The notes under the pieces: model-generated
What the model was told of the DNA's origin: nothing
The model's database searches: none
What the model saw: the letters and a program-made list of their open reading frames with translations, nothing else
Program-made: the position numbers and the translations under genes
Source of the DNA: Planctomycetota bacterium
Lineage (GTDB): Bacteria; Planctomycetota; MHYJ01; JACQXL01; CAKKQI01
Direction: 5' to 3'
Assembly: GCA_030633885.1 (NCBI GenBank)
Contig: DAOWBV010000001.1
Span: 1-54,168, forward strand
DNA length: 54,168 nt
Shown here: in pieces, positions 2,714 to 52,990 of the stretch
How the letters are laid out: each line of letters opens with the position of its first letter
Position numbering within the stretch: position 1 is the stretch's first letter

Positions 2714-5700
2714 CTAGACGGCCAGTCTCTGTTCGGAGGAATCTTCTGATTCGGACACGCTGTCTCCCAGAATTGACGGTTCAGCCGGTTTTTCCAGCTT
2801 CATCAAACGTCGCTTCGGGAAACCCGTCCCGCAGGGAACAATATGACCCAGAATGACATTCTCTTTAATGCCACGTAAAGGATCACGTCGACCGGCCAAA
2901 GCGGCTTCAGTCAAAACGCGGGTCGTTTCCTGGAAAGAAGCCGCGGCGATAAAGCTTTCTGACTGCAGACTGGCTTTGGTAATACCCATCAACAAGGGCT
3001 TAGCCGTCGCCGGTTTGGAACCCTTCTTGATCATTTTCTGGTTGGCTTCCTGGAATTTAAATTTATCAACGATACTGCCCGGCAACAGATCCGTATCACC
3101 TGAAGTCTGCACCTTGACTTTCCTCAGCATTTGCCCGACAATGATCTCAATATGCTTGTCATTGATGGTAACACTCTGAGAACGGTAGACATTCTGGACC
3201 TCCTGAAGAAGATAACTCTGTACGGCTTCGATACCACTGATTCGCAAAATATCGTGAGGGACGCGCGGGCCGTCAACCAACGGTTCCCCGGCCTTAACCC
3301 GATCGCCACGATGGACTCTTAAATGCTTGCCTTGCGGAACAAAATGTTCGCGTTCCATACCGCTTTCTTCATTACGGATAATGATTATTCGTTTACCGCT
3401 TTTCTTTTCACCCAGAGCAACAATCCCGTCAATCTCAGCCACAATGGCCGGATCTTTCGGCTGCCGGGCTTCGACTAATTCAGTCACCCGCGGCAGACCA
3501 CCGGTGATGTCCTGAGTACCGAGCAATTCGCGGGGCATCTTGGCCAGCAAGGTACCTGAATCGATCTTATTACCTTCATTAACTTCTAAATGCGCTTTTT
3601 CCGGAACGGCGTAGACCCCCAGAATCGTCCCTTTATCATCTTCAATCACGACCTGCGGATGCAGGTCACCTTTGTGCTCAATGATAACTTTCCGTTTGAT
3701 CCCACTCCGCAACTCCACCTCTTCTTTCATGGTCACATTTTTAATGATGTCTTCGTAGCGAACCTTACCGCCTTTTTCGGCCAAAATAGGAATATTATGG
3801 GGATCCCAAGTAACCAGGACCGTCCCGGCCTTGACCGGTTTCCCTTCCTTGACCATCAGAATCGAACCGGACGGAACCACATACTGTTCCAATTCCCGAT
3901 TCTTATCATCCAAGACTATCAGTTCACCGTTCCGATTGACCACTACGGTTTCACCTTTTTTAGTCACGGCGGCTTTAATATTATTAAACTTAACCACCCC
4001 GGCACTCTTGACGACAATCCGGGATTCTTCGATCGTTCGCGACGCTGTTCCACCGATATGGAAAGTTCTCATGGTTAACTGTGTTCCCGGTTCCCCAATG
4101 GATTGGGCGGCAATAATACCGACCGCTAATCCTTCTTCCACTAATTTACCGGTGGAAAGATCCATCCCGTAGCATTTAGCGCAGAGGCCAAAAGGCGACT
4201 CACAAGTCAAAGTCGACCGAACACGGACTTTGGGTAAACCTAAATTTTCTATCCGCTTGGAAATTTCCTCGGTAATCAACTCATTTTCTTTCACCACAAT
4301 CTCATCGGTAACAATATCCACGATATTATCGCGAGCCACCCGACCAAAAATACTTTCACTCAAGGAAATGTCGATTTTTTCACCCTTGTAAATAATTCCT
4401 TTGGTTACGCCGTTCAGAGTACCGCAATCATCTATCGTTATGAACATGTTCTGAGTGACATCGACCAGTTTCCGAGTCAGGTAACCGGCGTCGGCCGTTT
4501 TCAGCGCTGTATCGGCCAATCCTTTACGCGCGCCGTGAGTGGAACTGAAATATTCCAGCACGCTTAACCCTTCCCGGAAATTAGCTTTAATCGGCGTTTC
4601 AATGATCTCACCGGACGGTTTGGCCATTAAACCACGCATCCCGGCTAACTGCCGAACCTGGTCAATACTGCCCCGAGCACCGGAAAAAACCATTAAATTG
4701 ATCGGGTTAAGATAAGGCTGACCATCCCGAACATCGTTCTTAAAGCCATTGATCATAACTTCAGCCACTTTTTCCCGAGCCGAAGTCCAGCAATCGATAA
4801 TCTGGTTATAACGCTCGCCGTCCGTGATCACCCCCTGGCGATAATTCTGCTCGATCTTGACTATTTCCAGTTCGGTTTCTTTGATGATCTTTGGTTTTTC
4901 CGGCGGTATCCGTAAATCATCTTTGCAAATCGACAGACCGGAAAGCGTCGCTGCTTTAAAACCTAGTTTTTTAATATCATCCAATAATTCAACAGTCGCT
5001 TCCCGCCCATTCTGTTTGTAACAATTATTAACGATTCGGCTGGCATCCTTTTTGGTGACCTCAAAGTTATAAAAACCCAGATTGTCCGGAATAACCTGAT
5101 TAAATATCAAACGACCCACGGTAGTATTATAAACAGTACTATTAGGGGATTTAGGTTCGTCCGGCTGACCGTTCTTTTTAAGAACTTTAACATCCGACTC
5201 AAATTTAACCGGAATTAAACCGTTTAACTTTACCTTCTTATTATCGTACGCCAGCAAAGCCTCTTCCGGGCTGGAATAGTAACCCTGAAGCTTTTTCCAC
5301 CAATCGTCTTTACTTTTGCCTTGCTTTTTATTTTCGTGTTCCTGGGTTTGTTCCGGACGTTCCAGGGTCAGGTAGTTAATGCCTAAAACAATATCCTGGG
5401 TCGGCGAAATACTCGGACTGCCGTGCGCCGGAGAGAAGATATTCTGGGTAGACATCATGAGCATGCGCGTTTCCACCAGGGCTTCCCAGGAAAGCGGCAA
5501 ATGAACGGCCATCTGGTCACCGTCAAAATCAGCGTTAAACGCCGGACAGACCAGCGGGTGAATTGAGATCGCGTTCCCTTCGACCAGGATCGGTTCAAAA
5601 GCCTGGACCCCCATCCGGTGCAAGGTCGGCGCGCGGTTCAAAAGAACCGGATGATCTTTAATAACTTCATCGAGCACATCCCAGACGCCTTCGTCGCGTC

Positions 5701-10678: not shown

Positions 10679-10890
10679 TTACTCTCCTTTTACTACACCG
10701 GGCAATAAATTAATATTTCGGCTGAGTAGAAGATACTTTGGGTTCGGAAACCAAGTTGATTATTTGCGTCAGAGGAAGACGTTGATAGCCAAAACCCCGG
10801 CCAGCGGTTAATCCAGCCGAGAAAACCGGGTCACGGACCGGTTGGTCACCACGCATAATAGATACAGATAGAACCATCTTTAATCGTAAA

Positions 10891-11011
10891 CCCCGTTAGA
10901 GATAGGTCGTCCATTCGGAACGACCGTTGTTTGGGATATTCTCTAAGGGCGGTTTTTGTATTTCCTATGTCTAAATATTTTCGTTAGAAATTTTAACCAT
11001 CTCTAACGGGG
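10891..11011 (-). mobile_element. MITE-like TIR element (CCCCGTTAGAGAT family), copy in the rplL-rpoB spacer
   Basis: CCCCGTTAGAGAT at 10891-10903 and ATCTCTAACGGGG at 10999-11011 are a perfect 13-nt inverted repeat. The element is flanked by direct TAAA at 10887-10890 and 11012-11015. A subterminal hairpin GGTCGTCC-attc-GGAACGACC next to the left end on the plus strand orients the element with the minus-strand genes. Confidence 0.8.
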
Positions 11012-11068
11012 TAAAGGCATTGATTAACCTGTCGCTTGCGGCTCAGGTAGAGTCAAGGGTCTGTCCGG

Positions 11069-18867: not shown

Positions 18868-18895
18868 TTGATTTTTCTGATTGCGGTGGTATAAT
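18868..18895 (+). promoter_or_regulatory. candidate sigma70-type promoter of the pseudopilin operon
   Basis: TTGATT (18868-73), a 16-nt spacer and TGgTATAAT, an extended -10 (TATAAT at 18890-95). It lies about 35 nt upstream of the GGAGA RBS and the ATG at 18931. Confidence 0.5.
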
Positions 18896-18930: not shown

Positions 18931-19536
18931 ATGAAAAATAATGGGTTTACCCCGTTAAAGATCAGGAAAATTTTTGCTAAAAGTATTTGGGACCTGGCAA
19001 CTAAACAAACCTTCGTTAGAAACTATACAATGCCGCGGTCGTTCCGGAAGAACGACCTATCTCTAACGGGGTTTACCCTAATCGAACTATTAGTCGTAAT
19101 AGGTATTATTGCCATCCTGGCCGGATTAATTATTCCCAACCTGATCGGCGTCCAGGGCAGCGCGGCCGAAGCTGGCGCCCGGACCGAGATCGCCGGTCTG
19201 GTCGAGGCCCTGACTATGTATGAAATGGATAACGGCGCCTACCCGGCCCACGATTCCAGCTTCTCCAGCCTGGTTCTGATCAACGAACTCAGCGGCGATC
19301 GCAACACGGATCCGCCGAAACCACGTTATTTTTCGTTTAAGAAAAAAAGAATTGAAGACAATTGGTATTACAGTCCCCTGAACTTTCCGTATTTTTATCA
19401 GGAAAACGCGTCAGACCCGGACAACATGACCGGCAAACATCACCCGCCTCATGATCCGGAAACGTTTGACATCTGGACGCGCAGCCGCAAAGATACCAAA
19501 GATGGTCTGAAAGACGGATTAAACAGTTGGAATTAA
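18931..19536 (+). CDS. GspG/PulG-like major pseudopilin with an element-expanded leader
   Basis: The ATG at 18931 lies 7 nt after GGAGA (the longest ORF starts at 18916). It reads MKNNGFT, then a 42-codon in-frame insertion, then GFTLIELLVVIGIIAILAGLIIPNL...EALTMYEMDNGAYP, a class III signal plus GspG-like body. An internal in-frame ATG lies at 19030. Confidence 0.85.
   Translation: MKNNGFTPLKIRKIFAKSIWDLATKQTFVRNYTMPRSFRKNDLSLTGFTLIELLVVIGIIAILAGLIIPNLIGVQGSAAEAGARTEIAGLVEALTMYEMDNGAYPAHDSSFSSLVLINELSGDRNTDPPKPRYFSFKKKRIEDNWYYSPLNFPYFYQENASDPDNMTGKHHPPHDPETFDIWTRSRKDTKDGLKDGLNSWN
18950..19071 (+). mobile_element. MITE-like TIR element, copy inside the pseudopilin 1 leader
   Basis: CCCCGTTAAAGAT (18950-62) and ATCTCTAACGGGG (19059-71), with direct TTTA at 18946-49 and 19072-75. 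Element plus one duplication is 126 nt, which is in frame. The subterminal hairpin is GGTCGTTCC-gga-AGAACGACC. Confidence 0.8.
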
Positions 19537-19540
19537 CCTG

Positions 19541-20323
19541 ATGAAGAATTCAGCGGGGTTCGTTCCGAATAAACCAAAAGAAGTATTAGTCCACGGTCCC
19601 TTCCCGCCTCTTTGGAGCGAGGCTCGCCCAACAAAGTTGGGCGGCGGGTTCACCCCGTTAGAAATCACTGAAATTTCCAATACAAGTAATGCAATAAACA
19701 TGCAAAACAAACAAATCCGTGACAGAAAGTATGCTATGCAACGGTCGTCACGACCGGACGACCTACCCCGACATAACGGTCGGGGCGGGTCTCTAACGGG
19801 GTTCGCTGAACGCGGTCCCTTCGGGTTCACCATTTTAGAATTATTGGTCATCATAACCGTTATTCTGGTTCTGACCACGATTACCGTCGTCGCTTTGGGC
19901 TCCCTGGGTGAAAAAGGTAATGTCACAGCAACTGAAGGATTAATCAAAAGCATCGAAATTGCCCTGACCAATTACAAAGAGGTTTTTCCGGAATACCCGC
20001 CCAGCGACCAGAGAACCTGGAAAGGATCTCAAAATCTTTATCACTACCTGACCAAAAAACTTGAGTATCACATGTTTTTCGATCCGGTCCTGGGAACTTC
20101 GGAGAAAAAAGAATTCCACGCCGGATTACGTTTTAAAAAACAGTATTTGGATCATGAAAAATACGTAATTGATCCCTGGGGTAACCGGCTAACTTACAAA
20201 AATCCCGGAACAAACCACCGGTCAAGCGGTGGCAAAAACAATAGTTCTTACGTGGATATTGAATCCAATGGTCCAAGCGCTGCGCCGGACGATAATATCA
20301 ACAACTGGTCTTTAAATAAGTGA
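19541..20323 (+). CDS. pseudopilin (G-like) with a 95-residue composite leader
   Basis: MKNSAGF, then 89 inserted residues, then GFTILELLVIITVILVLTTITVVALG. GGGTTC occurs four times in frame (19556, 19646, 19799, 19823). Only the last is followed by the hydrophobic helix with Glu at +5. Confidence 0.8.
   Translation: MKNSAGFVPNKPKEVLVHGPFPPLWSEARPTKLGGGFTPLEITEISNTSNAINMQNKQIRDRKYAMQRSSRPDDLPRHNGRGGSLTGFAERGPFGFTILELLVIITVILVLTTITVVALGSLGEKGNVTATEGLIKSIEIALTNYKEVFPEYPPSDQRTWKGSQNLYHYLTKKLEYHMFFDPVLGTSEKKEFHAGLRFKKQYLDHEKYVIDPWGNRLTYKNPGTNHRSSGGKNNSSYVDIESNGPSAAPDDNINNWSLNK
19556..19828 (+). repeat. tandem in-frame insertions between four GGGTTC repeats in the pseudopilin 2 leader
   Basis: Three units of 90 nt (19556-19645, carrying the GC palindrome and the hairpin GCCCAAC-aaa-GTTGGGC), 153 nt (carrying the TIR element) and 24 nt (19799-19822). 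The first and third units share GGGGTTCG...CGGTCCCTTC. Confidence 0.75.
19653..19801 (+). mobile_element. MITE-like TIR element, long variant, inside the pseudopilin 2 leader
   Basis: CCCCGTTAGAAAT (19653-65) and GTCTCTAACGGGG (ending at 19801). Flanks are TTCA (19649-52) and TTCG (19802-05). It has two internal hairpins (GGTCGTC...GACGACC and CCCCGAC-ataac-GGTCGGGG) and in-frame ATGs at 19700 and 19736. Confidence 0.8.
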
Positions 20324-20438
20324 GTTGTCAGGATATTTCTCCGACAGCTCACTCTGAGTGATAACGAAGGATCAATAAGGTTTTTTAACTCTTTAAGTTT
20401 CAGGATGATCTTGTATTGAAATAAAAAAACCGGGTTCA

Positions 20439-20610
20439 CCTCGTTAGAGATCACTGAAACCTGCCCGATTGTCCTGTCAGGCGGGTTTCCATTAAAAGTA
20501 TTTTAAACATGCAAAATAAACAAATCCGTGCCAGAAAATATGCTATGCAACGGTCGTCCCGACCGGACGACCTATCCCGACATAACGGTCGGGGTGGGTC
20601 TTTAACGGGG
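20439..20610 (+). mobile_element. MITE-like TIR element, long variant, separating the vestigial leader from pseudopilin 3
   Basis: CCTCGTTAGAGAT (20439-51) and GTCTTTAACGGGG (ending at 20610), with direct TTCA at 20435-38 and 20611-14. Length plus duplication is 176 nt, which is out of frame. In the upstream frame it carries TAA at 20504-06, and ATGs at 20509 and 20545 in the pilin frame. Confidence 0.8.
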
Positions 20611-21159
20611 TTCACCCTGATCGAACTGATAGTGGTCATCAGTATTATTGTCCTCATGACCTCCATCTCTATGGTTTTTGTTTCCAAATTCATCAAAAGC
20701 GAAAATCTTAAACATGGCGGATTGATTCTCCGGACAACTTTTATGAAAGTCCGCCAGTTAGCCGCTACCCAACGGATCATGCACTTTCTGGTTTTCGAAC
20801 CGAATACCTCTTCAATGACTATATATAAAGACATTAATGAAAATCAAACCTGGGACAAGAATACCGATGAACAAGTCGATGAAACTATTGGATTACCAGA
20901 AGGGATCAGTTTTTTGAGCGGGCCTGATGGTCCGCCGCTTTTTAATTTACCTGAGCCGTACCTGTACCTGGGCTTCCGGACGGACGCCTCCCTGATGATG
21001 CCAACCGGTATTTCTGATCAGTCCTTGGTCCACCCGCCCAAAATCAAGGAAACGGATATTGTTCTGAAACAGAAAAACCAACCGAAAACAAAAATGTATA
21101 TTGACTTCGAACGCGGAACCGCTAAAATAAGAGTGCTGTTTTTATACACGGAAAAATAA
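20509..21159 (+). CDS. GspH/FimT-like minor pseudopilin initiating inside the element
   Basis: MQNKQIRARKYAMQRSSRPDDLSRHNGRGGSLTG|FTLIELIVVISIIVLMTSISMVF, followed by a GspH-like body. All residues before the Gly-Phe cleavage motif are encoded by the inserted element. Confidence 0.8.
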   Translation: MQNKQIRARKYAMQRSSRPDDLSRHNGRGGSLTGFTLIELIVVISIIVLMTSISMVFVSKFIKSENLKHGGLILRTTFMKVRQLAATQRIMHFLVFEPNTSSMTIYKDINENQTWDKNTDEQVDETIGLPEGISFLSGPDGPPLFNLPEPYLYLGFRTDASLMMPTGISDQSLVHPPKIKETDIVLKQKNQPKTKMYIDFERGTAKIRVLFLYTEK

Positions 21160-21161
21160 TT

Positions 21162-21854
21162 ATGGATCATCAAAAAGGGCTCACCCTTATCGAAATCCTG
21201 ATTGCCATGATCATTCTCTCCGTGGGACTGATCATGGTCCTGACCATTTTTCCCGTCGGTATCCGAAGCACCAAAGAATCCACCGAGGATACTTATGCCG
21301 CTTACCTGGCCGATTCGATCGTCCAAGCTCTGACCCAGGCCATGAGGACAGCCACGTCGGAAGACCGGACCGGAAATAAAGCCGGACAAGTCACCCTGAT
21401 CCACGACGGCCTGACCGGCGCTAATGATTCCTATATCTTTGAATTACCTTTACCGGTCGATCCGCCCCTGGCTCAACCCAGATATTTTCTCTATCCCGAC
21501 CCGAATAACAACATCAAGGGTCAGCAAATCATACCACCCATTGAAAGTTTTGACGAAATATTTCACCTGGCTAACAGTCCGGTAATTGGTGACATTTTAA
21601 AAGAGGTGCGGGCCGGACCGGATCCGACTGATCCCTACGCCCAGTATGGATTTGCTTTTGTGGTCCGGCGGGTGGACGATACGCGACCGGCGACGGAAAT
21701 AGATACCAAATACACGCCGAAACCTTTTTTTGAATTCCGGATCTATATCTTCCGGGTTCCGATTCAAAGCGGCGGTAGCGGTTATGTCTCAACCGGCCCA
21801 AAAAAAATACCGCCCCCGATAAATTTTTTTATCATTCAATTAGCGGGACGATAA
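21162..21854 (+). CDS. GspI/PilV-like minor pseudopilin (uninterrupted leader)
   Basis: MDHQKG|LTLIEILIAMIILSVGLIMVLTIFPVG. This is the only gene of the five with an intact short leader. Its cleavage-site codons are GGG CTC ACC, which lack the TTYA core. Confidence 0.85.
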   Translation: MDHQKGLTLIEILIAMIILSVGLIMVLTIFPVGIRSTKESTEDTYAAYLADSIVQALTQAMRTATSEDRTGNKAGQVTLIHDGLTGANDSYIFELPLPVDPPLAQPRYFLYPDPNNNIKGQQIIPPIESFDEIFHLANSPVIGDILKEVRAGPDPTDPYAQYGFAFVVRRVDDTRPATEIDTKYTPKPFFEFRIYIFRVPIQSGGSGYVSTGPKKIPPPINFFIIQLAGR

Positions 21855-21858
21855 AAAT

Positions 21859-21948
21859 ATGGCAAGAAATAATAACGGTTTTACCCCGTTAGAGATCACG
21901 AAAACCTGCCCGACTGTCCGGCAGGCAGGTCAGGCGGGTCTCCATTAA
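21859..21948 (+). other. mini-ORF containing the ancestral prepilin leader of pseudopilin 5
   Basis: The ATG at 21859 lies 4 nt after the stop of the preceding gene. It reads MARNNNGFT, then runs into the element (PLEITKTCPTVRQAGQAGLH) and stops at TAA 21946-48, 13 nt before the ATG at 21962. Confidence 0.55.
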
Positions 21949-22039
21949 AAGTATTTTAACCATGCAAATTAAACAAGTTTTTGTTAGAACACAATCAATG
22001 CGACGGTCGTCCCGAAAAGACGACCTATCTCTAGCGGGG
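21884..22039 (+). mobile_element. MITE-like TIR element separating the ancestral leader from pseudopilin 5
   Basis: CCCCGTTAGAGAT (21884-96) and ATCTCTAGCGGGG (22027-39), with direct TTTA at 21880-83 and 22040-43. Length plus duplication is 160 nt, which is out of frame. It holds a nested CCTGCC...GGCAGG palindrome and the hairpin GGTCGTCCC-gaaaa-GACGACC. Confidence 0.8.
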
Positions 22040-22732
22040 TTTACCTTGCTGGAATTAATGGTCGCCGTTGGTCTGATGGTCCTGATCATGAGCATCGTCG
22101 CGATGATATTTTCTCAGACTTCCCGGGTCTATACCAACAGCGTGGACCGAATGAATATTTACGCTTCCGCCCGGGCGGTCTGTGACAGGATCACCACTGA
22201 CCTGAACGGTGCTCTACCGAAAAATAACCCGCAACAATTATTTAAGATTAACAAAGGAACAACGGCTCAGGATAAAAAAGGCCGAAGTTATGATAAAGAT
22301 CAGATATCGTTTCGTACGACCACTTCGGTTTTTGGTTCGGTCCGGGTGGCGGAAGTTCGTTATTTCTTAATCCCGGAAGTTGACCTCTCAATTCTCTCTC
22401 AAGTAGCCCGGGGCGGCGCACCGGAAACAACCAAAACCAAAAGAAAACTTTACGCTCTCCGCCGAGTCGTCAATGACTTTAACGGCACCCTCACCCTGAT
22501 CGATGAAGCTAACTTATGTCATTACGTCCTGGCAATGAAGATCGAGTATTTGGATTCCGCCACCAAGCGGTATCAAGACCCCCCGCCGCTTGGTCTTTTA
22601 ATAGACAAGAATAGCCCGCCTGATAAAAAATTACCCGGGGCCATTAGGATATCTCTCCGAGTGGTGGCCGGAGCGGCCGAAAGGCAGGAACGATTGATCA
22701 GCAAAGTCATCTGTATCCCAATGGGACAATGA
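21962..22732 (+). CDS. GspJ/PilW-like minor pseudopilin initiating inside the element
   Basis: MQIKQVFVRTQSMRRSSRKDDLSLAG|FTLLELMVAVGLMVLIMSIVAMIFSQTSRVYTNSVDRMN..ARAV.DRITTDL, a GspJ/PilW-like N-terminus. A second in-frame ATG lies at 21998. Confidence 0.8.
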   Translation: MQIKQVFVRTQSMRRSSRKDDLSLAGFTLLELMVAVGLMVLIMSIVAMIFSQTSRVYTNSVDRMNIYASARAVCDRITTDLNGALPKNNPQQLFKINKGTTAQDKKGRSYDKDQISFRTTTSVFGSVRVAEVRYFLIPEVDLSILSQVARGGAPETTKTKRKLYALRRVVNDFNGTLTLIDEANLCHYVLAMKIEYLDSATKRYQDPPPLGLLIDKNSPPDKKLPGAIRISLRVVAGAAERQERLISKVICIPMGQ

Positions 22733-39680: not shown

Positions 39681-40172
39681 TTATTCGCTCTCTTCTTTTT
39701 CTTTACAACTGATGCACAACCGAGCGTAGGGGATGGCGTCGAGCCGTTTGGTGGGGATATATTTGGAACATTTGTCACAGACACCATAAGTCTTATCCGT
39801 GATCCGTTCCAAGGCAGAATCGATCTCACGAAGTTCCTGGTCTTCGTTTTCGATCAGGCCTAACGTGAAATCCTGTTCGAAATTATCAGTGCCGACATCG
39901 GCAATGTGAATCGGCACGTTAGAAAGGTCGCCCGAAGCTTCCTTTCTGGATTTTTTCAGAGCTTCCTCTTCCATCTGGGCAACGTTACTCTTTAATAGTC
40001 TTCGCCGGTTCAGCAAAGCGTTTTTGAATTTATTTAAAGATTTAACTGCTAATTTAGTCTTTACTTGCCGAAGCGGTGTTACATCCAGTGACTCCGGTTT
40101 AATTTTTTTCCGGACGACCTGACTTTTGGTCCGACGGACCTTCTTTTTAATGCTTTTCTTACGCTTGACCAT
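39681..40172 (-). CDS. DksA/TraR family C4-type zinc-finger protein with a long basic N-terminal extension
   Basis: 163-aa ORF. The C-terminal CDKCSKYIPTKRLDAIPYARLCISCK is the DksA/TraR four-Cys finger, preceded by a coiled-coil region. The first 40 or so residues are Lys/Arg-rich. Confidence 0.8.
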   Translation of the reverse strand: MVKRKKSIKKKVRRTKSQVVRKKIKPESLDVTPLRQVKTKLAVKSLNKFKNALLNRRRLLKSNVAQMEEEALKKSRKEASGDLSNVPIHIADVGTDNFEQDFTLGLIENEDQELREIDSALERITDKTYGVCDKCSKYIPTKRLDAIPYARLCISCKEKEESE

Positions 40173-40193: not shown

Positions 40194-40305
40194 CCCCGTT
40201 AGAGACCTACTGCAACCGTTACGTCGGAGTAGATCACCTTGAAATATATGCCTGTTAATCGTAATTTCAACTTTTGACCATTCTGAAAACCCGTCTCTAA
40301 CGGGG
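40194..40305 (-). mobile_element. MITE-like TIR element, copy in the rpmC-dksA spacer
   Basis: CCCCGTTAGAGAC (40194-206) and GTCTCTAACGGGG (40293-305). The right end is 1 nt from the rpmC stop codon (40307-09). Flanks TCTA and CTTA are only approximately duplicated. The subterminal hairpin (CTACT...AGTAG) has a different sequence but the same position. Confidence 0.7.
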
Positions 40306-51156: not shown

Positions 51157-51205
51157 CCCATTAGAGCTACCGGTCGTCAAGTAAAGACGACCTACCTCTA
51201 ACGGG
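51157..51205 (+). repeat. 49-nt miniature version of the TIR element
   Basis: CCCATTAGAG (51157-66), GGTCGTC-aagtaaa-GACGACC, then CTCTAACGGG (51196-205). It consists of the two termini plus the subterminal hairpin only. It is opposite in orientation to the surrounding genes and has no clear flanking duplication. Confidence 0.65.
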
Positions 51206-51244: not shown

Positions 51245-51283
51245 CCTGCCTGACCGCCAAAGGCGGGTAAACCGGCAGGCAGG
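51245..51283. repeat. CCTGCCTG...CAGGCAGG nested palindrome just downstream of rpsG
   Basis: CCTGCCTG (51245-52) pairs with CAGGCAGG (51276-83), and inner CCGCC-aaa-GGCGG lies at 51254-66. Related CCTGCC...GGCAGG units occur at 52946-63, 13582-97 and nested in the pilin elements (20460-85, 21905-40). No U-tract follows on the rpsG strand. Confidence 0.7.
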
Positions 51284-51296
51284 TGTGGCTAAAAAA

Positions 51297-52913: not shown

Positions 52914-52990
52914 GTTGATTTTTTAATCCGTCCAATCAGCAAAACCTGCCTGCCATCAGGCAGATCAGCGGTTAAAAAAGGGGAATCAGA

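Follow-up and report, generated by a model that had tools for sequence, protein, structure and literature searches.

How can a gene take up a transposable element at its 5' end and still give its product? The question is raised by a 54,168-nt stretch of Planctomycetota DNA (contig DAOWBV010000001.1 of assembly GCA_030633885.1; "the window" below), whose population was sampled in the ZHAN22-2 metagenomes (assembly GCA_023135705.1). At 18.9-22.7 kb, 3' of a gene for a sigma-54-dependent response regulator, lie five consecutive pilin-like genes, and four of the five have the same short repeat in their 5' ends. The first-pass annotation took this repeat for a mobile element exapted as a portable 5' gene end, one that gives its host gene a start codon and a replacement prepilin leader. 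The reading that we consider probable is that a transposable element of the miniature inverted-repeat class (a MITE) sits at the prepilin cleavage site, that it is read through by default, and that two of the genes, pil3 and pil4, are rescued by ATGs that the element itself carries.

The repeat is a non-autonomous transposable element of the MITE type. Its ends have the form CCCCGTTAGAG(AT)...(AT)CTCTAACGGGG, terminal inverted repeats of 11-13 bp that are paired in all copies, and a variant of the repeat, CCCGTTAGAA/TTCTAACGGG, covaries between both ends. In most copies a subterminal hairpin, GGTCGTC-loop-GACGACC, adjoins the right end, a pattern with five matches in the window where 0.00 were expected. 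Compensatory changes keep the hairpin paired: the pil1 copy has T-A where others have C-G, and among copies outside the window, which carry L-numbers here, L010b reads GGTCGCC/GGCGACC and the arms of L029, GGTCACGCC/GGCGTGACC, have three pairs altered on both sides. The element is 121-171 nt long and holds no transposase gene, its open frames being the read-through peptide frames only. Seven copies lie in the window, four of them (c1 to c4) in pil1 to pil4 and three elsewhere (Table 1), and they are flanked by direct TTYAC pentamers, a 5-bp target duplication (TTNAC overall); TTYAC, TTGAC or TTAGC is duplicated at most copies examined, both here and elsewhere. Rfam covariance models gave no match at gathering thresholds anywhere in the window, and a terminator scan found no T run after the element hairpin.

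The decisive evidence for mobility, and for a recent arrival at pil1, comes from empty-site alleles in close relatives. The 90%-identity protein cluster of pil1 has members of 201 and of 159 residues; the latter read MKNNGFTLIELLVVIG..., are exactly 42 residues shorter and have the leader MKNNG↓FTLIEL (the arrow marks the cleavage position). Their DNA (L024, from the related assembly GCA_023143775.1, and L025) reads ATGAAAAATAATGGGTTTAC followed directly by CCTAATCGAA, that is, GGGTTTAC joined to CCTAATC. The filled allele of the window has between GGGTTTAC and CCTAATC an insert that opens with CCCGTTAAAG and closes with CTCTAACGGGGTTTAC, so that TTTAC stands on both sides. The filled allele is longer by exactly 126 nt, of which one TTTAC is part, and the flanks of the two alleles are 98.5% identical. 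The pil1 insertion, a 121-nt element plus a 5-bp duplication, is therefore recent and still polymorphic, and that the repeat is mobile, as first proposed, is confirmed. An N gap over the pil1 element in L013, considered as another alternative allele, is merely a scaffolding gap. L024 also differs from the window further on: most of pil2 is missing from its positions 3578-3760, aligned with window 19541-20509, where the 5' end of pil2 has become joined to the pil3 element by recombination between the element copies of these two genes.

Could the repeats instead bound an invertible switch, with one orientation giving an open leader or a start codon and the other giving stops, so that pilin expression varies in phase? 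Perfect inverted repeats do flank the segment, pilins are classic targets of phase variation, most copies have stops in the pilin frame when reversed, and several assemblies break or gap at the elements. An empty site with an exact 5-bp duplication is nevertheless a signature of transposition and not of inversion. Moreover, the 5-7 assemblies that cover the locus all have every copy the same way round, no recombinase was present among the window open reading frames (ORFs) checked, and the element also occupies intergenic spacers and, in frame, an Fe-S enzyme gene. We regard a switch as highly improbable.

All five pilin-like genes match the Pfam families N_methyl and/or T2SSG, and in all five the motif G↓FT(L/I)(I/L)EL can be seen, its G standing at -1, its F at +1 and its E at +5, followed by a hydrophobic helix. 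It is at this class III signal-peptide cleavage site that the element has entered, in the TTY-AC of the codons for Gly-Phe-Thr. Read in the pilin frame, the left end of the element gives (F-T-)P-L-E and the right end gives S-L-T-G (..TCT CTA ACG GGG), after which comes the duplicated TTYAC; the tip of the right repeat and the duplication therefore rebuild G↓F-T-L-I-E-L ahead of an unaltered mature sequence. The first-pass observation that the right end encodes residues up to the cleavage Gly thus holds. The original short leader (M-K-N-N-G-F-T) is now displaced upstream. Prepilin peptidase would remove the whole extended leader at the rebuilt site, and the mature pilin would be unchanged.

The frame is kept in pil1 and pil2, where the TTYAC pentamers are 126 and 153 nt apart. 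The canonical insertion of 126 nt amounts to 42 stop-free, mostly basic codons, and all six canonical copies are stop-free in the T-P-L-E...S-L-T-G frame (four of the six also in one reverse frame). Over 14 copies, all 14 frames are open, against 5.6 expected from shuffled interiors. In pil1, pil2 and the pilin of L023, a second pilin locus in the same sample, the ancestral ATG is intact and in frame through a stop-free element; a Shine-Dalgarno sequence (GGAG or AAGGAG) precedes it in pil1 and L023, that of the pilin operon being a GGAG at ~18918, after the promoter. These three genes, and more than 50 pilins elsewhere, would by default simply be read through, with promoter, Shine-Dalgarno sequence and ATG all ancestral.

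The pil2 copy departs from the pattern at its right end. It reads ..DDLPRHNG.., and the true G↓FTILELL lies eight codons past the SLTGF of the element. The short leaders originally read from the internal ATGs, MPRSFRKNDLSLTG, MQRSSRPDDLSRHNGRGGSLTG and MRRSSRKDDLSLAG, each followed by F, are correct as translations, but in pil2 the leader does not end at the cleavage Gly, SLTGF not being the cleavage site there. The pil2 leader also contains a 267-nt in-frame block (19556-19828) between GGGTTC repeats at 19556 and 19823, and taking this block out would leave MKNSAG↓FTILELL, a canonical leader. In its outer 114 nt are two GC-rich hairpins; since these 114 nt have no repeat in the DNA examined, they are not called a mobile element.

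Proteins from other sources point to the same in-frame arrangement. The element-encoded leaders, used as a protein query, returned short generic pilin N-termini only, without recovering the window's own proteins, apart from three matches with a doubled motif. A profile of the doubled motif, run against 1.84 billion cluster representatives, returned about 50 doubled-motif proteins in its best 150, and in total there are at least 58 pilin-like proteins of the form M..K-K-G-F-T-P-L-E, interior, [S/F]-L-T-G↓F-T-L-I-E-L. Their interiors, of 11-74 residues, vary in sequence and are mostly basic (R+K 25%, D+E 6.5%). In a second, word-based search for the doubled motif generic pilins predominated, and no taxonomic information was gained. 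Wherever the DNA of such a pilin was retrieved (L018, L020, L022, L023, L026, L027, L029 and L030), the terminal repeats and the duplication were present, the extremes being a 28-nt copy of the two repeats alone in L022 and a tandem double insertion in L027. In L027 (1705-3482) and L028 a pilin with a full and a mini element in tandem stands beside paralogous empty-site pilins (MIDKRRGFTLIEL).

Must the insert be translated at all? A ribosome might bypass it, passing from one of the duplicated codons (TTY ACC) to the other over a compactly folded element. As in T4 gene 60 and the mitochondrial byps, a structured insert here lies between identical codons, and the predicted fold is closed by the paired terminal repeats at -36 to -74 kcal/mol. 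The length is wrong, however, since the gaps measure 121-171 nt and known bypasses are of about 50 nt. Past the take-off site there is no stop codon, and the insert has been kept translatable: canonical copies are stop-free and in frame, which would be needless if they were skipped. We give bypassing next to no credence.

A different idea is that the insert is beneficial, a domesticated cassette whose RNA structure or long basic leader regulates the translation or processing of the pilin. It would fit the recurrence of the element in many unrelated pilins, the covariation that keeps the hairpin, and the basic composition of the interior peptides. One population, though, contains both the filled and the empty allele of pil1, the interiors vary widely in length and sequence, Rfam offers no match, and the binding site of a transposase would explain the conservation of the hairpin equally well. 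Such a cassette seems to us quite improbable, and read-through of a tolerated MITE remains the preferred account of the in-frame copies.

Read-through does not serve pil3 and pil4, whose TTYAC pentamers are 176 and 160 nt apart. As neither spacing is a multiple of three, the ancestral start of each gene is out of frame or stopped. The ancestral ATG of pil4, at 21859, now opens a 29-codon ORF with its stop at 21946-21948; the in-frame codons upstream of pil3 read TGA-AAT-AAA-AAA-ACC-GGG-TTC-ACC and offer no usable ancestral start. The window has ATG ATC TTG TAT TGA AAT AAA AAA ACC GGG TTC ACC at 20405-20434, upstream of the pil3 element, and deletion of one A there would give TTG-AAT-AAA-AAA-ACC-GGG (M-N-K-K-T-G↓F-T), which suggests a decayed ancestral start. 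Judged by the reading frames, production of pil3 and pil4, if they are expressed, must start at an ATG inside the element, and gene callers place the start of pil3 at ATG 20509 in L013 and L024.

The origin of the frame breaks can be traced through L023. Copy c4 is the in-frame L023 copy, 88% identical, plus a 34-nt GC-rich hairpin insert, and a related 26-nt GC-rich hairpin stands in the pil3 element. A hairpin of 26-34 nt, unrelated to the element, would have entered each copy later and broken the frame, in pil4 also adding a stop. These hairpins belong to a second family, CCTGCCYGA...CAGGCRGG, 26-34 nt, with window sites at 20460-20485, 21906-21939, 51245-51290 and 52945-52975. In groundwater sequences L007 and L008 a 30-nt hairpin differs by presence and absence, in frame, within the ORF MDKKKA[CLCVNALRQA]IKYWLK.

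Which internal ATG would serve as the start? All the ATGs first reported are present and in the pilin frame: next to the hairpin, ATGCCGCGGTCG at 19030, ATGCAACGGTCG at 19736 and 20545, and ATGCGACGGTCG at 21998, and further upstream those at 19700, 20509 and 21962. The energy needed to open the RNA from -18 to +12 around each candidate was calculated and set beside the values for 39 reference starts of genes in the window, whose median is 6.3 and whose 90th percentile is 13.4 kcal/mol. The hairpin-adjacent ATGs need 12.6, 14.0, 11.3 and 15.8 kcal/mol in order of position, about at or above the 90th percentile, and the upstream ones 4.1, 2.1 and 4.0 kcal/mol, well under the median. On these low predicted energies, pil3 and pil4 are likelier to start at 20509 and 21962, upstream ATGs in AU-rich and unstructured sequence, than at the hairpin-adjacent 20545 and 21998. 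Initiation at 21962 in pil4 could be re-initiation after the 29-codon remnant ORF.

The two genes may of course be made from no start at all. On this alternative the internal ATGs are incidental, pilins are made from ancestral starts by read-through, and pil3 and pil4 are young pseudogenes, inactivated by the secondary hairpin insertion. Read-through is indeed the rule elsewhere, the internal ATGs have no Shine-Dalgarno sequence and those next to the hairpin are poorly accessible, and the loss of pil2 by recombination between copies in a related strain implies that the operon tolerates the loss of a pilin. On the other side, the ORFs of pil3 and pil4 run unbroken for 216 and 256 codons in each of two strains, the differences in pil4 being mostly synonymous, few start regions of the window are more accessible than the upstream ATGs, and about half of the window's genes likewise lack a Shine-Dalgarno sequence. 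We think it unlikely that the ATGs are incidental, and rescue of pil3 and pil4 by element-borne starts probable.

Several points weigh against that assessment. No Shine-Dalgarno sequence precedes any internal ATG, and the inactivation of pil3 and pil4 could be so recent that decay of their ORFs has yet to begin; the window and L024 differ by 6 synonymous and 3 non-synonymous changes only, too few for a ratio of non-synonymous to synonymous rates (dN/dS). That the peptidase would tolerate leaders of 22-90 residues is an assumption by analogy with type IVb pilins, in which long leaders occur naturally. Target duplications are unclear at several older copies (L001, L010a and L011), and no autonomous transposase with these ends was found in the DNA examined, the collection scans having been aimed at the hairpin pattern only; an IS4-family DDE transposase gene beside the L027 pilin is not flanked by element repeats. 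Candidate sources of such a transposase would be IS1380-like elements, with CC ends and a duplication of 4-5 bp, and the Tn3 family, with one of 5 bp. Finally, the abundance of the element in pilins may reflect insertion preference, survivorship or benefit.

Has selection placed the ATGs where genes depend on them, as the first-pass annotation proposed? Dependence is borne out for pil3 and pil4, whose frame is broken, and not for pil1 and pil2, whose ancestral start is in frame. The hairpin-adjacent ATG is present in all five pilin-resident hairpin copies of this population (the four in the window and L023) and in none of ten other hairpin copies, an association that runs through all the copies collected. 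The naive Fisher test gives p ~3e-4 for copies that are related by descent, and within the population the contrast is 5/5 against 0/2 (p ~0.05). Three pilin-resident hairpin copies of other lineages (L029 and two in L030) have no ATG there and are read through. Outside the pilin genes, the copy in the rplL-rpoB spacer has no ATG, as reported, although its string is AAACAACGGTCG and not CAACAACGGTCG; the 40194 copy has no hairpin, so an equivalent position does not exist in it.

The inference of selection is weakened because the five copies are related, three of them do not need the ATG, c1 is recent, and the L029 and L030 copies lack it. Selection of the ATG only where a gene depends on it is thus not supported, as some copies have the ATG without needing it and pilin-resident copies of other lineages lack it. 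Since c1 is very recent and is only 75-77% identical to any other copy examined, the spacer copy included, its ATG came from an unseen source copy. The simplest reading is that this population's subfamily of the element has inherited the internal ATGs as one of its traits, and that an ATG already there made the later frame break survivable. That the element serves genes as a portable 5' end is likewise not supported, since promoter, Shine-Dalgarno sequence and original short leader are all still ancestral.

Beyond the pilins, the same ends and hairpin surround unrelated interiors in two Planctomycetota metagenome-assembled genomes (L001 and L005) and in groundwater, sediment and other metagenomes (L007-L012). 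Four of six hairpin-pattern hits in the genome collection were chance matches in GC-rich genes, and the plasmid collection held no DNA resembling the element. L005 has a gene for an Fe-S/GltD-type oxidoreductase (3407-4996, plus strand) with two 42-codon in-frame copies in reverse orientation (NPVRDRSSQRDDR...ISNG). One of these lies within a 2Fe-2S-type N-terminal domain, and a third, hairpin-less copy is just upstream of the gene. A reverse-frame peptide query (NPVRDRSS...ISNG) brought no candidates for further non-pilin genes with in-frame copies.

In L007 (3554-3669), L010 (7690-7812) and L011 (882-1002) the duplicated target, TTGAC, is a -35 box, and groundwater copies have an interior TGnTATAAT 17 nt from it, making a promoter-like site directed into the element; two groundwater copies form TTGACC-17-TATAAT together with their flank. 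In L011 a tRNA gene directly adjoins, with its 5' end, an end of the element. In the window, the 40194-40305 copy lies upstream of a gene at 39681-40172 in what by appearance is a ribosomal-protein gene cluster, and this copy and the rplL-rpoB one are co-oriented with transcription and would belong to highly expressed mRNAs. By eye the insertion flank can resemble the element end (ACC CCG TTA GAG and ACC CTG ATA GAG, and likewise the rplL-rpoB and L010b flanks), a likeness that might account for any bias towards pilins, yet alignment scores of flanks against the end were mostly at background. Near the pilins, a sigma-54 promoter, suggested by the adjoining sigma-54 activator, had no plus-strand match and no enrichment; the remaining features are given in Table 1.

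Table 1. Element copies, pilin genes and associated features of the window.
Feature	Position	Strand	Description	Basis
c1 (pil1)	18946-19076	+	121 nt (18951-19071); TTTAC duplication 18946-18950 and 19072-19076; hairpin 19037-19057; ATG 19030	
c2 (pil2)	19649-19806	+	148 nt plus TTCAC/TTCGC duplication, 153 nt in frame; 24-nt second hairpin 19766-19789; ATGs 19700, 19736	
c3 (pil3)	20435-20615	+	176-nt insertion including TTCAC duplication, frameshifting; 26-nt GC-rich hairpin 20460-20485; 24-nt second hairpin 20576-20599; ATGs 20509, 20545	
c4 (pil4)	21880-22044	+	160-nt insertion including TTTAC duplication, frameshifting; 34-nt GC-rich hairpin 21906-21939; hairpin 22005-22025; ATGs 21962, 21998	
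rplL-rpoB spacer copy	10886-11016	-	TTTAC duplication; no ATG at either position; stops in pilin-type frame	
Intergenic copy	40194-40305	-	same terminal repeats and second-hairpin module, without CGGTCG hairpin	
Miniature intergenic copy	51157-51205	+	left repeat CCCATTAGAG, hairpin, right repeat CCTCTAACGGG; no ATG	
Pilin-operon promoter, sigma-70 type	18868-18895	+	TTGATT-16-TATAAT with TG	best promoter match in region, 10/12
pil1	18931-19536	+	GspG-like major pseudopilin, 201 aa from ancestral ATG	T2SSG, N_methyl; MKNNGFT[PLKIRK...SLTGFT]LIELL
pil2	19541-20323	+	260 aa counted from ancestral ATG	ORF, Pfam
pil3	20509-21159	+	216 aa, readable only from ATGs within c3	ORF, Pfam, frame spacing
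pil4	21962-22732	+	256 aa, readable only from ATGs within c4	ORF, Pfam, frame spacing
Fifth pilin-like gene	21162-21854	+	no element; MDHQKG↓LTLIEIL; site CTCAC instead of TTYAC	ORF, Pfam
pil4 ancestral-start remnant	21859-21948	+	29-codon upstream ORF (MARNNNGFTPLEITKTCPTVRQAGQAGLH, then stop), ending 13 nt 5' of ATG 21962	

The nearest known parallel in mode of action is found in the Rickettsia palindromic elements, short palindromic repeats (~100-150 bp) that lie in frame in coding genes and are translated as an extra peptide (PMC10969869). Both insert in frame within genes, as the 42 stop-free codons here and the oxidoreductase copies of L005 illustrate. The likeness goes no further, the host phylum being another and no sequence relationship being known. 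In the present element the terminal inverted repeats are clear, the target duplication measures 5 bp and an empty site has been demonstrated, and, whereas the Rickettsia peptides stay in the protein, its commonest coding niche is a leader that would be cleaved off, with the cut site rebuilt and the mature protein unaltered.

Bacterial MITEs in general (the Correia or NEMIS elements of Neisseria, ERIC, BOX, RUP, and QMITE1 of Coxiella) are non-autonomous and multi-copy, have inverted ends, are co-transcribed with genes and sometimes provide in-frame fusions or promoters (PMC10969869). In a literature search no MITE at a prepilin cleavage site, or regenerating a signal-peptidase site, came to light, and that MITE review has no pilin or signal-peptide case. 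The search likewise gave no paper with the repeat strings or the GFTPLE motif. Correia elements differ from the present one in the sequence of the terminal repeat and in a target duplication of TA, against a 5-bp TTNAC here. The rebuilt site itself resembles the class III signal peptides of type IV prepilins and of the type II secretion system in its G, F and E at -1, +1 and +5, its hydrophobic helix and its basic leader; it differs in that the long leader is transposon-made and contains a second, upstream pseudo-site, G-F-T-P-L-E, after which no hydrophobic segment follows.

The element can be described as an intragenic MITE that behaves like the palindromic elements of Rickettsia, what is new being the cleaved leader as its main coding niche and the rebuilt cleavage site. 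It is possible, though we advance this tentatively, that the family is specialised for prepilin leaders across many uncultured lineages, always re-creating G↓F-T, adding 42 stop-free basic codons, having its insert excised by the peptidase, and in this population furnishing the sole start of two pilins. If true, this would be analogous, at the level of protein, to an intron or intein, and would offer a transposon a safe harbour inside genes. Most of what is known of in-frame selfish DNA in bacterial genes comes from Rickettsia, and the way in which it is tolerated is debated; tolerance here would have a concrete mechanism, the insert lying in a segment that is cut off and rebuilding its own cut site. 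Annotation is affected, since a doubled G-F-T and an apparently odd long leader occur in more than 50 metagenomic pilins and two genes here are called from starts in a transposon. So are the dynamics of the genome, in which deletions between pilin genes are driven by MITE copies, as L024 shows. The locus offers a natural series, from an empty site through an in-frame insert to a frame-broken insert rescued by an internal ATG, in which the passage of an element into the 5' end of a gene may be studied.

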